DNA from: a virus
Taxonomy: Duplodnaviria > Heunggongvirae > Uroviricota > Caudoviricetes
DNA: 6,544 bases
IMG/VR virus record: IMGVR_UViG_3300039122_000006
Direction: 5' to 3' (one strand)
Part shown: in pieces, positions 2,788-6,268 of the stretch
Numbering within the stretch: the stretch's first letter is position 1
How the letters are laid out: each line of letters begins with the position of its first letter
The notes under the pieces: generated by a model
Database searches by the model: none
Seen by the model: the letters and a program-made list of their open reading frames with translations, nothing else
What the model was told of the DNA's origin: nothing
Position numbers and translations under genes: made by a program

Positions 2788-3873
2788 GTGAAAATACTTG
2801 TTACTGGTGGCGCAGGATTTATTGGTTCAGCTGTAGTTCGTCACATTATAAATAATACGCAGGATAGTGTTGTTAATGTCGATAAATTAACGTACGCCGG
2901 AAACCGGGAATCACTTGCTGATGTTTCTGATTCTGAACGCTATGTTTTTGAACATGCGGATATTTGCGATGCACCTGCAATGGCACGGATTTTTGCTCAG
3001 CATCAGCCGGATGCAGTGATGCACCTGGCTGCTGAAAGCCATGTTGACCGTTCAATTACAGGCCCTGCGGCATTTATTGAAACCAATATTGTTGGTACTT
3101 ATGTCCTTTTGGAAGCCGCTCGCAATTACTGGTCTGCTCTTGATAGCGACAAGAAAAATAGCTTCCGTTTTCATCATATTTCTACTGACGAAGTCTATGG
3201 TGATTTGCCTCATCCAGATGAAGTAAATAATACAGAAGAATTACCCTTATTTACTGAGACGACAGCTTACGCGCCAAGCAGCCCTTATTCCGCATCCAAA
3301 GCATCCAGCGATCATTTAGTCCGCGCGTGGAAACGTACATATGGTTTACCGACAATTGTGACTAATTGCTCGAACAACTATGGTCCTTATCATTTCCCGG
3401 AAAAGCTTATTCCACTGGTTATTCTTAATGCACTGGAAGGTAAGGCATTACCTATTTATGGCAAAGGAGATCAGATCCGCGACTGGTTGTATGTTGAAGA
3501 TCATGCGCGTGCGTTATATACCGTCGTAACCGAAGGTAAAGCGGGTGAAACTTATAACATTGGTGGGCACAACGAAAAGAAAAACATCGATGTAGTGCTC
3601 ACTATTTGTGATTTGCTGGATGAGATTGTACCGAAAGAGAAATCTTATCGTGAGCAAATCACTTATGTTGCTGATCGTCCGGGACACGATCGCCGCTATG
3701 CTATTGATGCTGAGAAGATTGGTCGCGCATTGGGATGGAAACCACAGGAAACGTTTGAGAGCGGGATTCGTAAAACGGTGGAATGGTACCTGTCCAATAC
3801 AAAATGGGTTGATAATGTGAAAAGTGGTGCCTATCAATCGTGGATTGAACAGAACTATGAGGGCCGCCAGTAA
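2788..3873 (+). CDS. rfbB: dTDP-glucose 4,6-dehydratase RmlB (361 aa), GTG start
   Basis: GTG at 2788-2790 gives [20 protein letters not shown]... with the Rossmann NAD-binding motif GGAGFIGS; the SDR catalytic motif YSASK and the conserved [10 protein letters not shown] are present. Stop TAA 3871-3873. Only a weak Shine-Dalgarno (GGA 2776-2778). Confidence 0.93.
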
Positions 3874-4772
3874 TGAATATCCTCCTTTTTGGCAAAACAG
3901 GGCAGGTAGGTTGGGAACTACAGCGTGCTCTGGCACCTTTGGGTAATTTGATTGCTTTTGATGTTCACTCTACTGATTATTGCGGTGATTTTAGTAATCC
4001 TGAAGGTGTAGCTGAAACCGTAAGAAGCATTCGGCCGGATATTATTGTCAATGCAGCCGCTCACACCGCAGTAGACAAAGCAGAATCAGAACCGGAGTTT
4101 GCACAATTAATTAACGCAACAAGTGTCGAAGCGATTGCGAAAGCAGCAAATGAAGTTGGAGCCTGGGTTATCCATTACTCGACTGATTACGTCTTCCCTG
4201 GAAATGGCGATATGCCATGGCTGGAGACGGATGCAACCGCACCACTAAATGTTTACGGTGAAACCAAGTTAGCCGGAGAAAAAGCGTTACAGGAATATTG
4301 CGCGAAGCATCTTATTTTCCGGACCAGCTGGGTCTATGCAGGAAAAGGAAATAACTTCGCCAAAACGATGTTACGTCTGGCAAAAGAGCGTGAAGAATTA
4401 GCGGTTATTAACGATCAGTTTGGTGCGCCAACAGGTGCTGAACTGCTGGCTGATTGTACAGCACATGCCATTCGTGTCGCACTGAATAAACCGGATGTCG
4501 CAGGCTTGTACCATTTGGTAGCCAGTGGTACCACAACCTGGTACGATTATGCTGCGCTGGTTTTTGAAGAGGCGCGCAAAGCAGGCATTCCCCTTGCACT
4601 CAACAAGCTCAACGCAGTACCAACAACAGCCTATCCTACACCAGCTCGTCGTCCACATAACTCTCGCCTTAATACAGAAAAATTTCAGCAGAACTTTGCG
4701 CTTGTCTTGCCTGACTGGCAGGTTGGCGTGAAACGAATGCTCAATGAATTATTTACGACTACAGCAATTTAA
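3873..4772 (+). CDS. rfbD: dTDP-4-dehydrorhamnose reductase RmlD (299 aa)
   Basis: ATG at 3873 overlaps the rmlB stop (TAATG). N-terminal GKTGQVGWEL is a GxxGxxG dinucleotide-binding motif; YGETK is the YxxxK catalytic motif. GAGG at 3859-3862 serves as an internal Shine-Dalgarno inside rmlB. Stop TAA 4770-4772. Confidence 0.93.
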   Translation: MNILLFGKTGQVGWELQRALAPLGNLIAFDVHSTDYCGDFSNPEGVAETVRSIRPDIIVNAAAHTAVDKAESEPEFAQLINATSVEAIAKAANEVGAWVIHYSTDYVFPGNGDMPWLETDATAPLNVYGETKLAGEKALQEYCAKHLIFRTSWVYAGKGNNFAKTMLRLAKEREELAVINDQFGAPTGAELLADCTAHAIRVALNKPDVAGLYHLVASGTTTWYDYAALVFEEARKAGIPLALNKLNAVPTTAYPTPARRPHNSRLNTEKFQQNFALVLPDWQVGVKRMLNELFTTTAI

Positions 4773-4781
4773 TAGTTTTTG

Positions 4782-4810
4782 CATCTTGTTCGTGATGGTG
4801 GAGCAAGATG
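4782..4810 (+). other. Predicted RNA stem-loop in the rmlD-rmlA intercistronic region
   Basis: 5' arm CATCTTGTTC (4782-4791), 9-nt loop GTGATGGTG (4792-4800), 3' arm GAGCAAGATG (4801-4810): a 10-bp stem with one G-U pair. Preceded by TTTTT (4776-4780) but not followed by a U-tract, so it is not a canonical intrinsic terminator. It ends 6 nt before the rmlA Shine-Dalgarno (AAGGAA 4817-4822). Confidence 0.4.
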
Positions 4811-4829
4811 AATTAAAAGGAATGATGAA

Positions 4830-5711
4830 ATGAAAATGCGTAAAGGTATTATTTTAGCGGGTGGTTCTGGTACACGTCTTTATCCTGTGACTATGGCTGT
4901 CAGTAAACAGCTATTACCTATTTATGATAAACCGATGATCTATTACCCGCTCTCTACACTGATGTTGGCGGGTATTCGCGATATTTTGATTATCAGTACA
5001 CCTCAGGATACTCCTCGTTTTCAACAATTGCTGGGTGACGGTAGCCAGTGGGGCCTGAATCTTCAGTACAAAGTGCAACCTAGCCCAGATGGCCTCGCGC
5101 AGGCATTTATCATCGGTGAAGAGTTTATTGGTGGTGATGATTGTGCTTTGGTTCTTGGTGATAATATCTTTTACGGTCACGATCTGCCGAAGCTAATGGA
5201 GGCCGCTGTTAACAAAGAAAGTGGTGCAACGGTATTTGCCTATCACGTTAATGATCCAGAACGCTATGGTGTCGTTGAGTTTGATAAAAACGGTACGGCA
5301 ATCAGTCTGGAAGAAAAACCGTTAGAACCAAAGAGTAATTACGCCGTTACAGGTCTGTACTTTTATGATAACGACGTGGTTCAGATGGCGAAAAACTTGA
5401 AGCCGTCTGCACGTGGTGAGTTAGAAATTACAGATATTAACCGTATTTATCTTGAGCAGGGACGTCTGTCTGTCGCGATGATGGGGCGTGGCTACGCGTG
5501 GCTGGACACGGGGACTCATCAGAGTCTGATAGAAGCAAGTAATTTTATTGCGACAATTGAAGAGCGCCAGGGATTGAAGGTTTCCTGTCCTGAAGAGATT
5601 GCATTTCGTAAAGGTTTTATTGATGTTGAGCAAGTAAGAAAATTAGCTGTACCACTAATAAAGAATAATTATGGGCAGTATCTTTATAAAATGACGAAGG
5701 ATTCAAATTAA
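4830..5711 (+). CDS. rfbA: Glucose-1-phosphate thymidylyltransferase RmlA (293 aa)
   Basis: ATG at 4830 gives [21 protein letters not shown]..., carrying the nucleotidyltransferase signature GGxGTRLxP. Shine-Dalgarno AAGGAA at 4817-4822. Stop TAA 5709-5711. Confidence 0.93.
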
Positions 5712-6268
5712 TGAATGTGATTAGAACTGAAATTGAAGATGTGCTAATTCTGGAGCCAAGAGTATTTGGTGATGATAGAGGTTTCTTTTATGAGAGCTTT
5801 AATCAATCAGCATTTGAACATATTCTAGGCTATCCGGTCAGCTTTGTTCAAGACAATCACTCACGTTCATCAAAAAATGTACTCAGAGGCCTTCACTTTC
5901 AACGCGGCGAGTACGCACAAGATAAACTTGTACGCTGCACTCATGGAGCAGTTTTTGATGTTGCTGTTGATATTCGACCCAATTCGGTATCCTTTGGTAA
6001 ATGGGTTGGTGTTCTGCTTTCAGCTGATAATAAGCAGCAGTTGTGGATACCAAAAGGGTTTGCTCATGGCTTTTTGGTTCTGTCTGATATCGCTGAATTT
6101 CAATATAAAACTACAAACTATTATCATCCTGAAAGCGATTGTGGAATATGTTGGAATGATGAACGCATTGCAATTGATTGGCCCCAAACATCAGGGTTAA
6201 TCCTTTCGCCAAAAGATGAAAGGCTCTTTACGTTAGATGAGCTTATCAGATTAAAATTAATTGCATGA
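5711..6268 (+). CDS. rfbC: dTDP-4-dehydrorhamnose 3,5-epimerase RmlC (185 aa)
   Basis: ATG at 5711 overlaps the rmlA stop (TAATG). Size and sequence ([30 protein letters not shown]...RGLHFQ...) fit the cupin-fold RmlC family. Shine-Dalgarno AGGA at 5698-5701. Stop TGA 6266-6268. Confidence 0.93.
   Translation: MNVIRTEIEDVLILEPRVFGDDRGFFYESFNQSAFEHILGYPVSFVQDNHSRSSKNVLRGLHFQRGEYAQDKLVRCTHGAVFDVAVDIRPNSVSFGKWVGVLLSADNKQQLWIPKGFAHGFLVLSDIAEFQYKTTNYYHPESDCGICWNDERIAIDWPQTSGLILSPKDERLFTLDELIRLKLIA

Follow-up and report, generated by a model that had tools for sequence, protein, structure and literature searches.

A conserved stem-loop between rfbD and rfbA in the Escherichia coli rfb operon, possibly a post-transcriptional element ahead of rfbA

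The uncoupled junction of the rhamnose genes

Why does one junction of an operon whose other genes are coupled keep a spacer, and what does that spacer contain? O-antigen operons are usually regarded as controlled only via their promoter and RfaH anti-termination. The window analysed here, a stretch of 6,544 nt taken as a whole, is the wcaM-galF-rfbBDAC region of E. coli K-12. A JUMPstart/ops element, recognized by its Rfam match and used here as context only, lies 5' of rfbB (2674-2712, + strand), and it is because of this element that we consider the rfb operon to be RfaH-dependent. Within the operon, rfbB/rfbD and rfbA/rfbC are coupled through TAATG and rfbC/rfbX through ATGA. The exception is the boundary between rfbD (rmlD; 3873-4772, + strand) and rfbA (rmlA, coding for glucose-1-phosphate thymidylyltransferase; 4830-5711, + strand), where 57 nt separate the TAA of the former (4770-4772) from the ATG of the latter (4830). 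The TAA is followed by an in-frame TAG, the two stops together occupying 4770-4775 of the + strand. A first-pass annotation of this DNA had singled out rmlD-rmlA as the sole non-coupled junction, with a gap of that length, and both its coordinates and the coupled state of the neighbouring junctions are confirmed.

The spacer is made of three parts. A tract of five U residues (4776-4780, + strand) stands immediately 5' of a hairpin, which is followed by an A/U-rich linker merging into the rfbA ribosome-binding site (4811-4829, + strand), with AAGGA as its Shine-Dalgarno sequence (4817-4821) and three ARN triplets in succession at 4815-4823. The hairpin (4782-4810) combines a 10-bp stem and a 9-nt loop. 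Its 5' arm is CATCTTGTTC (= CAUCUUGUUC; 4782-4791, + strand) and its 3' arm GAGCAAGATG (= GAGCAAGAUG; 4801-4810, + strand), while the loop, GUGAUGGUG (4792-4800, + strand), varies freely among alleles. Four of the ten pairs are G-C and one is G-U (U4789-G4803). The stem starts 9-10 nt past the rfbD stop and ends 19 nt short of the rfbA start, 6 nt ahead of the AAGGA. The U5 run, the stem, the loop and this 6-nt gap had all been placed correctly in the first-pass annotation.

Folding of the spacer

RNA folding recovers the helix given in the first-pass annotation, with a minimum free energy (MFE) of -13.5 kcal/mol, and the hairpin exceeds chance. When the spacer is folded alone, z is -3.05 and 0.6% of 500 shuffles fold equally well or better; in a 75-nt context z is -1.72, with equal or better folding in 14 of 200 shuffles. 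Six loci of the 6544 nt, the hairpin being one of them, have a 33-nt MFE of -13 or lower, which places the hairpin in the top 0.13% of windows of similar GC. Its helix probability is 0.99-1.00 in every wider context tested. The fold is also strand-specific: the sense strand reaches -13.5 kcal/mol as against -7.1 for the antisense strand, a large difference that is due to G-U pairs.

No Rfam family corresponds to this structure. Scanned permissively against the Rfam covariance models (E <= 1), the window has no match at 4773-4833; its only matches are the JUMPstart element and a spurious miRNA model (2450-2517). Our literature search turned up neither a stem-loop described at the rfbD-rfbA junction nor an experiment on the hairpin.

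Conservation among Escherichia coli alleles

The E. coli sequences fall mainly into two forms of the junction: allele A, carried by about 1,965 genomes, and allele B, carried by about 310, with one copy per genome. Counted over 2,284 E. coli genomes, the element has a median of 1 place per genome and a maximum of 2. It is this single occurrence that sets it apart from REP/BIME repeats, a class considered here and discarded. Of the 18-mer matches obtained from metagenomes, about two-thirds were unrelated sequences and were filtered out.

The contrast between the stem and its surroundings is best seen when A is compared with B. In the flanking genes rfbD and rfbA, 47-60% of fourfold-degenerate sites differ, which is near saturation, whereas 3-4 of the 20 stem bases have changed (binomial P <= 0.006), with all ten pairs retained. 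The loop differs at four of its nine bases and the linker with its ribosome-binding site (4811-4829) at one of 19 positions; the U5 tract is common to both alleles, variants in UUAUU being rare. When 14 different variants are taken together, paired cells make up 98.6% (4 of 500 shuffles equal the observed values), pairing is broken only at the two loop-adjacent pairs, and RNAalifold independently arrives at the same helix. Among the pairs that vary, one has changed on both sides (U-A to C-G) and three on one side; one stem position is occupied by three pair types (U-G, C-G and U-A) and two more switch to G-U. In ST131 the change A4811U extends the stem to 12 bp. As a separate observation, one strain carries an ISApl1 insertion within the 3' arm.

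The first-pass annotation had made its stem depend on such a comparison across rmlD-rmlA junctions. The outcome is that pairing is kept while the loop drifts, the covariation itself being thin: only one pair has changed on both sides, and each substitution in the stem is a transition able to go via a G-U intermediate, so that some retained pairing is expected even without selection. To judge from these comparisons, the hairpin qualifies as a conserved cis-acting RNA helix, with a signal that is weak as pure covariation, and selection maintains it as a helix of the sense-strand RNA.

Other genera

Citrobacter, Enterobacter, Leclercia, Scandinavium and Pseudenterobacter, together with some E. 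coli, have at the same place an unrelated hairpin, ATGCCCG-N4-CGGGCAT (allele C). Its offset matches that of K-12, as it begins 8-11 nt after the stop and ends 19-22 nt before the start, and the spacers that contain it fold mostly at -12 to -15 kcal/mol (-9.3 in Scandinavium). This hairpin is nearly invariant where the fourfold sites of rmlD are saturated, at 0.64-0.72, and UUU(U)G/C directly follows it in all cases. Further out, Hafnia, Buttiauxella and Pantoea retain a spacer of 40-59 nt in which folding finds no stable hairpin. A scan of genome contigs for RmlA, informative on this point alone, shows rmlD overlapping rmlA in many non-enteric bacteria; the loci it returned came for the most part from distant phyla, no more than three being enterobacterial. 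Since the hairpin is absent from the outer genera and the two genes overlap elsewhere, the element is lineage-specific and in principle dispensable.

Hfq and small RNA contacts

The junction also appears in maps of RNA contacts on Hfq. RIL-seq tables list cyaR:::rfbA chimeras, together with chimeras labelled cpxQ:::rfbA.rfbD.IGT, which recur in 12 of 12 libraries; RIL-seq from another laboratory adds CyaR-rfbA chimeras numbering 197 and 773. Hfq CLASH tables contain 48 CyaR-rfbA hybrids, as well as one hybrid with an rfbD-side fragment of exactly 4777-4803, over the U5 run and the hairpin. In these tables the rfbD 3' UTR figures among the 'TEX sensitive' candidates, taken to be processed, on the basis of a single hybrid. 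These CyaR and CpxQ chimeras are recorded in supplementary tables only, and we found no follow-up in the main texts searched. By the reproducibility of its chimeras, the junction is a candidate Hfq-dependent sRNA target region. In two sets of CyaR-rfbA chimeras the furthest-upstream rfbA 5' end is 2111073 (NC_000913.3), which corresponds to window position 4776, the first U of U5; this boundary could be a product of RNase trimming in the RIL-seq protocol and not an in vivo end.

Where might the small RNAs pair? Pairing was predicted by scans of 20-nt windows, unrestricted duplex prediction having yielded meaningless long-range structures. For CyaR, nucleotides 32-51 are predicted to pair at -26.4 kcal/mol with codons 9-15 of rfbA (4855-4874, + strand). 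This site coincides with the RIL-seq and CLASH chimera fragments and lies about 45 nt 3' of the hairpin, hence outside it. For CpxQ, the predicted duplexes involve either the loop and 3' arm (4793-4808, -16.2) or the rfbA coding region (4854-4873, -17.1); the K-12 loop sequence GAUGGUG is complementary to CpxQ nucleotides 17-23. This complementarity is restricted to the K-12-type allele, the site being unconserved in alleles B and C, and we therefore reject pairing of CpxQ with the loop as the cause of hairpin conservation. Nor is the junction likely to be the source of a 3' UTR-derived sRNA, with a single hybrid for the rfbD 3' UTR and no U tail after the hairpin.

Alternative explanations

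Could the hairpin act during transcription? As an attenuator or pause hairpin, it would reduce the transcription that reaches rfbA and the O-antigen genes beyond it, except by polymerase that has taken up RfaH at ops/JUMPstart; the K-12 hairpin would then correspond, in E. coli, to the GC hairpin of other Enterobacteriaceae, which resembles a terminator and has a U tract. The operon does have a JUMPstart/ops element, the Enterobacter-type hairpin scores as terminator-like, with UUU(U)G/C behind every allele C hairpin, and the literature describes stem-loop attenuators that separate wzc from the genes downstream of it inside RfaH-dependent capsule clusters. Rahn and Whitfield, in 2003, reportedly dealt with an RfaH-dependent polysaccharide cluster having an intra-operon stem-loop attenuator of this sort. 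However, the K-12 stem is followed by AAUUAAAA / AAUUAAAAGG, which provides no 3' U tract, a terminator scan of 4500-5100 returns 0 sites on either strand, and what alleles A, B and C have in common is the hairpin, not the U tract. In the portion of the Term-seq supplement of PMC7815308 available to us, 3' ends are listed upstream of rfbB and there is no entry for rfbD or rfbA; in the available portion of the TERMITe supplements, a compilation of terminators, rfbD and rfbA are likewise missing, so that nothing in these tables, within those limits, points directly to a stable 3' end at the hairpin. This makes attenuation in K-12 unlikely. An internal terminator or promoter can be rejected there, with no terminator-like site and a promoter scan that produced one weak promoter-like match, inside rfbA. 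A role of the DNA itself, be it as a protein-binding palindrome or as a recombination hotspot, might be suggested by the fact that the hairpin is an inverted repeat, with ISApl1 inserted in its 3' arm in one strain. Yet the imperfections of the repeat are of the kind tolerated by RNA, with G-U pairs at three sense-strand positions where the opposite strand, like a cruciform, would have A-C mismatches, and the repeat occurs once per genome: we see next to no chance that this is the explanation.

A translational device was among the suggestions of the first-pass annotation, which had noticed a 12-codon mini-ORF running from ATG 4795 to TGA 4831-4833 (+ strand). These coordinates are right, and the stop does overlap the rfbA start as ATGA (4830-4833). 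Ribosomes re-initiating after the rfbD stop would translate the mini-ORF, melt the hairpin and reach the overlapping rfbA start, so restoring coupling across the gap, or else the hairpin would tune rfbA initiation. The ATG of the loop is present in both alleles A and B, and in allele C an ATG in the 5' arm opens an ORF that ends 0-4 nt before the rfbA start, or overlaps it. Against this, inspection of the sequence reveals no Shine-Dalgarno ahead of ATG 4795, the peptide is unconserved beyond the bases that form the rfbA ribosome-binding site, a natural allele (L091) has AAG in place of the ATG, and an ORF of 8 or more codons that opens with ATG and closes at the ATGA arises in 8.7% of shuffled spacers; as for allele C, its ATG is imposed by the palindrome, whose GC-rich arms are unable to encode stops. 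The mini-ORF is also missing from the one small-ORF ribosome-profiling supplement consulted, that of 10.1101/2021.07.02.450978. It is probably incidental, and a role for it finds no support. Nor does the idea that the stem would modulate RmlA translation by masking: the stem stops short of the Shine-Dalgarno, and disrupting either arm in silico leaves the predicted accessibility of 4814-4835 essentially unchanged, which leads us to reject masking of the rfbA ribosome-binding site. A translational device is on the whole improbable. Finally, the hairpin may have no present function, as a relic of an ancestral rml module junction or a decayed terminator that hitch-hikes along, too short a time having passed since the alleles split. 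Many other bacteria do without the spacer, their rmlD overlapping rmlA, the outer enterobacterial genera lack a stable hairpin, and covariation is limited to transitions that can pass via G-U. But the divergence of fourfold sites (47-60% between A and B, 64-72% among allele C genera) is hard to reconcile with stems that remain paired or invariant while loops drift, and two unrelated sequences fold, with a matching offset, into hairpins that are about equally strong. We hold a mere relic to be rather improbable, and an old recombination junction, another early suggestion, does not explain why the stem is conserved next to synonymous sites that approach saturation.

A proposed structural boundary in the rfb message

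The reading that best accommodates the structure of the stem, its conservation and strand specificity, the analogous hairpin of other genera and the Hfq/sRNA chimeras at the junction is that of an intercistronic RNA stem-loop acting on stability, on processing or as an Hfq-docking element ahead of rfbA. We prefer it tentatively. A role in mRNA processing or stability had been proposed in the first-pass annotation; this part of it stands as the best fit, the manner in which the stem would operate being a matter of inference. Within the RfaH-dependent rfb mRNA, the stem occupies untranslated sequence between rfbD and rfbA; its extent is roughly that expected to be left bare when one ribosome terminates at the end of rfbD and another initiates at rfbA. 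Because this stretch is expected to be ribosome-free, the stem probably stays folded. It would most likely act post-transcriptionally, dividing the polycistronic message as a structural boundary, being in K-12 presumably neither an intrinsic terminator nor a mask of the rfbA ribosome-binding site, and it could block exonucleases or the scanning of RNase E. Along with the U5 tract on its 5' side and the A-rich ribosome-binding region on its 3' side, it could also serve as an Hfq-associated leader from which rfbA is initiated independently, a target of CyaR and probably of CpxQ as well. Chao and co-workers are said to have derived, in 2017, the RNase E consensus RN|WUU; AG|UUU at the U5 tract fits it, the motif being a common one. 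The element might also affect RmlA output.

A bolder form of the stem-loop reading may be entertained. That the U5 tract, the hairpin and the A-rich ribosome-binding site are an Hfq-docking leader of a separately controlled rfbA cistron, in which enterobacterial lineages have swapped the hairpin sequence while keeping the module, seems to us doubtful. If true, it would explain the retention of the sole uncoupled junction of the rhamnose operon, and CyaR (cAMP-CRP) and CpxQ (envelope stress) would throttle RmlA, and with it the supply of dTDP-rhamnose and O-antigen, leaving rfbBD untouched. A selectively maintained RNA element at the one uncoupled junction, beside reproducible CyaR and CpxQ contacts, would indicate post-transcriptional control at the committed step towards dTDP-rhamnose, that of RmlA, in the most thoroughly studied of bacteria. 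Were the hairpin a passive stabiliser only, it would be an ordinary feature of operons.

Comparison with known systems

Several established systems resemble this junction in part. Relay ORFs ending in ATGA share with it the overlap of the mini-ORF stop and the rfbA start codon; they differ in that the mini-ORF has no Shine-Dalgarno, an unconserved peptide and no ribosome-profiling support in the supplement cited above, and is compatible with chance. The attenuators downstream of wzc (E. coli K30, Klebsiella cps) are likewise intergenic hairpins inside a long surface-polysaccharide operon controlled by ops/JUMPstart, and they too part a conserved promoter-proximal block from the genes downstream. 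The allele C hairpins of Citrobacter, Enterobacter and Leclercia look of this kind, whereas that of K-12 has neither the 3' U tract nor a terminator score. With the Hfq-binding modules of sRNA target mRNAs the junction shares the succession of a U5 tract, a hairpin and the A-rich AAAAGGAAU, as well as CyaR and CpxQ chimeras in RIL-seq and CLASH data, one CLASH fragment being 4777-4803. Here, however, the predicted CyaR pairing falls about 45 nt downstream, in the rfbA coding region, and docking of Hfq on the hairpin is putative.

Intercistronic hairpins, such as the REP of malE-malF, that of papB-papA in pap, or those at the 3' ends of gal operon mRNA, can give the upstream and downstream segments of a message different stabilities. 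Unlike the REP-type stabiliser of malE-malF, the rfbD-rfbA hairpin is not a REP/BIME element, being present as a single copy per genome. What it has in common with intercistronic stabiliser and processing hairpins is a stable stem-loop set in an untranslated polycistronic gap, between AU-rich single-stranded flanks that fit the RNase E consensus.

Operon layout and the spacer hairpin

The window is identical in sequence to Escherichia coli K-12 MG1655, position x lying at 2115849 - x on the minus strand of NC_000913.3 (2111019, where rfbA starts, is window 4830), and it contains wcaM, galF, the JUMPstart/ops element, rfbB, rfbD, rfbA, rfbC and the start of rfbX. JUMPstart/ops (2674-2712; 60 bits, ops = GGCGGTAG) lies upstream of rfbB, and a published supplement places Term-seq 3' ends 78 and 120 nt upstream of that gene. 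Downstream of galF, a long composite hairpin at 2458-2520 (outer stem ACGGCAG/CTGCCGT, 12-bp inner stem at 2469-2497, then TGTTTTATATA) is probably the galF terminator and accounts for a spurious Rfam miRNA match (MIR8001, both strands).

The first-pass annotation had singled out the rfbD-rfbA (rmlD-rmlA) junction as the only uncoupled one among the dTDP-rhamnose genes, and its description holds in detail. In the series rfbB (2788-3873), rfbD (3873-4772), rfbA (4830-5711) and rfbC (5711-6268), the remaining rml junctions have overlaps of 1 or 4 nt, and rfbD is separated from rfbA by 57 nt, directly preceded by a TAA TAG double stop. The spacer holds a U5 run (4776-4780), a 10-bp stem (4782-4791 with 4801-4810, one G-U pair) closed by a 9-nt loop and ending 6 nt before the Shine-Dalgarno AAGGA, and a 12-codon mini-ORF (4795-4833) that begins in the loop and whose TGA overlaps the rfbA ATG. 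Four database entries of 411-520 aa (P0002, P0017, P0137, P0157) that fuse RmlD to RmlA domains, or RmlA to RmlC-type domains, probably reflect frameshifts or gene mis-calls across these rml junctions. Another strong local hairpin (4698-4730, -15.8 kcal/mol) is found inside the rfbD 3' end, some 50 nt ahead of the stop codon.

The spacer hairpin folds at -13.5 kcal/mol, with a helix probability of about 1 in every wider context folded. Six loci in the 6.5-kb window, this one included, reach a 33-nt minimum free energy (MFE) of -13 or below. Within a 75-nt context its stability is marginal (z = -1.72; 14 of 200 shuffles equally stable); when the spacer alone is shuffled, z is -3.05 and 0.6% of the shuffles are as stable. 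Because G-U pairs favour the sense fold (-13.5 against -7.1 kcal/mol for the antisense), the relevant strand is the sense one, which speaks against reading the element as an antisense RNA or a DNA palindrome. No Rfam family matches at the hairpin, and a repeated element was rejected, the spacer being single-copy per genome.

Conservation in E. coli and related genera

Of 5,426 complete E. coli genomes, about 2,280 carry the spacer in single copy, as a K-12-like allele A (about 1,965) or a BL21-like allele B (about 310). Between A and B, 47-60% of fourfold-degenerate sites in the flanking rfbD and rfbA differ, which is near saturation, and divergence within the spacer is very uneven: 3-4 of 20 stem positions have changed (binomial P <= 0.006 against the fourfold-site rate), 4 of 9 in the loop and 1 of 19 in the 3' flank that includes the ribosome binding site (4811-4829). 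In 14 distinct spacers, taken from genomes and from metagenome contigs, pairing holds in 98.6% of cells, a level matched by 4 of 500 shuffles, and RNAalifold independently recovers the same helix. Allele B has C-G in place of the pair U4789-G4803, and a further lineage has U-A; a G-U pair arises from A4806G and another from C4791U, and A4811U in ST131 lengthens the helix to 12 bp (-16.1 kcal/mol); pair-breaking changes are limited to two rare variants, both next to the loop. Covariation, the check first proposed, is answered in part: pairing is kept, with a single two-sided event (U4787-A4805 to C-G) and all changes being transitions passable via G-U. Comparative sequence offers a stronger argument for the hairpin than covariation, namely a stem kept at near-saturated neutral divergence while its loop drifts. 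In one strain, E. coli DETEC-P793, an IS30-family ISApl1 is inserted in the 3' arm (positions 150-300 of that locus), parting rfbD from rfbA.

Spacers of 50-52 nt occur in Citrobacter (including C. amalonaticus), Enterobacter, Leclercia, Scandinavium, Pseudenterobacter and a minority of E. coli. This allele C carries a hairpin, ATGCCCG-N4-CGGGCAT then UUU(U)G/C, unrelated in sequence to that of K-12 and yet placed at the same offset, its stem starting 8-11 nt past the stop codon and ending 19-22 nt short of the start codon. It is similarly strong: for most spacers the MFE is -12 to -15 kcal/mol (-9.3 in Scandinavium) and z lies at about -2 to -3.2. Fourfold sites of rmlD are saturated among these genera (0.64-0.72), the stem is invariant or nearly so, and the tetraloop changes. 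The versions in Rahnella, Franconibacter and Kluyvera are weaker derivatives, one of the changes being A-U to C-G at the base pair; Hafnia, Buttiauxella and Pantoea have a gap of 40-59 nt that lacks a stable hairpin, and an ATGA overlap joins rmlD to rmlA in many beta-proteobacteria and other phyla. Core Enterobacteriaceae are thus characterised by a hairpin of about -13 kcal/mol in this position, supplied by two unrelated sequences that have in common the hairpin and not the U tract.

Translation of rfbA and the mini-ORF

Modulation of RmlA translation had been suggested. Masking of the rfbA ribosome binding site is not predicted, the mean unpaired probability of 4814-4835 being 0.46-0.54 in the wild type and 0.44-0.67 in arm mutants. 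The mini-ORF fares no better: it lacks a Shine-Dalgarno, its peptide differs among alleles except where the bases form the rfbA ribosome binding site, AAG replaces its ATG in one natural allele, 8.7% of shuffled spacers contain a similar ORF, and one small-ORF ribosome-profiling supplement (10.1101/2021.07.02.450978) has no entry for it. Allele C spacers also hold an ATG-initiated ORF reaching the rfbA start, but there the palindrome itself supplies the ATG, and stop codons cannot occur in the GC-rich arms. For these reasons we treat the mini-ORF as incidental, and it is improbable that it matters. K-12 RfbA begins MKMR (ATGAAAATG), against MKTR (ATGAAAACG) in nearly all other alleles (window 4836-4838), which gives K-12 another in-frame ATG two codons further on.

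Contacts with Hfq and small RNAs

Evidence linking CyaR and CpxQ to rfbA comes from supplementary tables of interactome studies, the searchable main texts not mentioning either sRNA together with rfbA. In Hfq RIL-seq of nitrogen-starved E. coli, cpxQ:::rfbA.rfbD.IGT chimeras occur in 12 of 12 libraries (mRNA 5' ends 4670-4848), and cyaR:::rfbA chimeras have 5' ends at 4849-4856. Hfq CLASH gave 48 CyaR-rfbA hybrids (rfbA fragment about 4841-4879) and classed the rfbD 3' UTR as processed ('TEX sensitive') RNA; one hybrid has an rfbD-side fragment, TTTTGCATCTTGTTCGTGATGGTGGAG, exactly 4777-4803, covering the U run, 5' arm, loop and start of the 3' arm. RIL-seq/iRIL-seq from another laboratory (2025) added 197 and 773 CyaR-rfbA chimeras, and ArcZ-rfbA chimeras (10 and 152) in the 3' part of rfbA (NC_000913.3 2110235-2110296, window 5553-5614). 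The CyaR-rfbA contact is strong across the three Hfq sets (48 CLASH hybrids; 84, 197 and 773 RIL-seq chimeras). A window-limited duplex scan predicts CyaR nt 32-51 on 4855-4874 (-26.4 kcal/mol, near-perfect seed complementarity), that is, on rfbA codons 9-15 encoding the GGSGT motif.

CpxQ has two comparable predicted sites, loop and 3' arm at 4793-4808 (-16.2) and 4854-4873 (-17.1); the K-12 loop GAUGGUG is complementary to its CACCAUC and the 3' arm GCAAG to its CUUGC. Alleles B and C do not preserve the loop site, so CpxQ pairing there cannot explain why the hairpin was retained. In both 2025 CyaR-rfbA sets the most upstream mRNA 5' end is 2111073, window 4776, the first U of U5. This boundary fits either an RNase E-type cut or protection by the U5-hairpin from RIL-seq trimming nucleases. 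The RNase E consensus is RN|WUU, a common motif, and AG|UUU agrees with it.

Proposed role and alternatives

Our preferred reading, held tentatively and at somewhat less than even chance, is that the hairpin acts post-transcriptionally on the sense mRNA. It fills roughly the stretch expected to be free between a terminating and an initiating ribosome; AU-rich single-stranded segments flank it, and it is part of the segment recovered with Hfq in sRNA chimeras. In the simplest model it would be a structural boundary that blocks 3' exonucleases or RNase E scanning and lets the rfbBD and rfbA-distal segments decay independently; it would also be a part of an rfbA leader, initiated on its own and targeted by sRNAs, at which Hfq docks. 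The data show the structure, its conservation, its strand specificity and the chimeras themselves, and from these we infer effects on stability, Hfq binding and RmlA output; a more novel reading, in which Hfq and sRNAs would control rhamnose synthesis here at its committed step, is unlikely.

An RfaH-suppressed attenuator or pause site, which the U-tract hairpins of other genera would favour, is equally unlikely: the K-12 sequence resembles a terminator on neither strand, and the Term-seq supplement of PMC7815308 and the TERMITe supplements list no 3' ends in rfbD or rfbA. Somewhat more doubtful is a non-functional relic, to be set beside the retention of the stem under near-saturated divergence. 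A translational relay through the mini-ORF, for which the overlap of its stop with the rfbA start might speak, is improbable given its unconserved peptide, and a DNA-level element, at odds with the sense-strand preference, is the least credible of all.

No earlier description of the rfbD-rfbA hairpin was found in the literature, and the contacts of CyaR and CpxQ at its junction, already published yet not exploited, raise its significance above that of a bare hairpin. Among known systems, the class that suits it best is that of the intercistronic mRNA stem-loops of polysaccharide operons.
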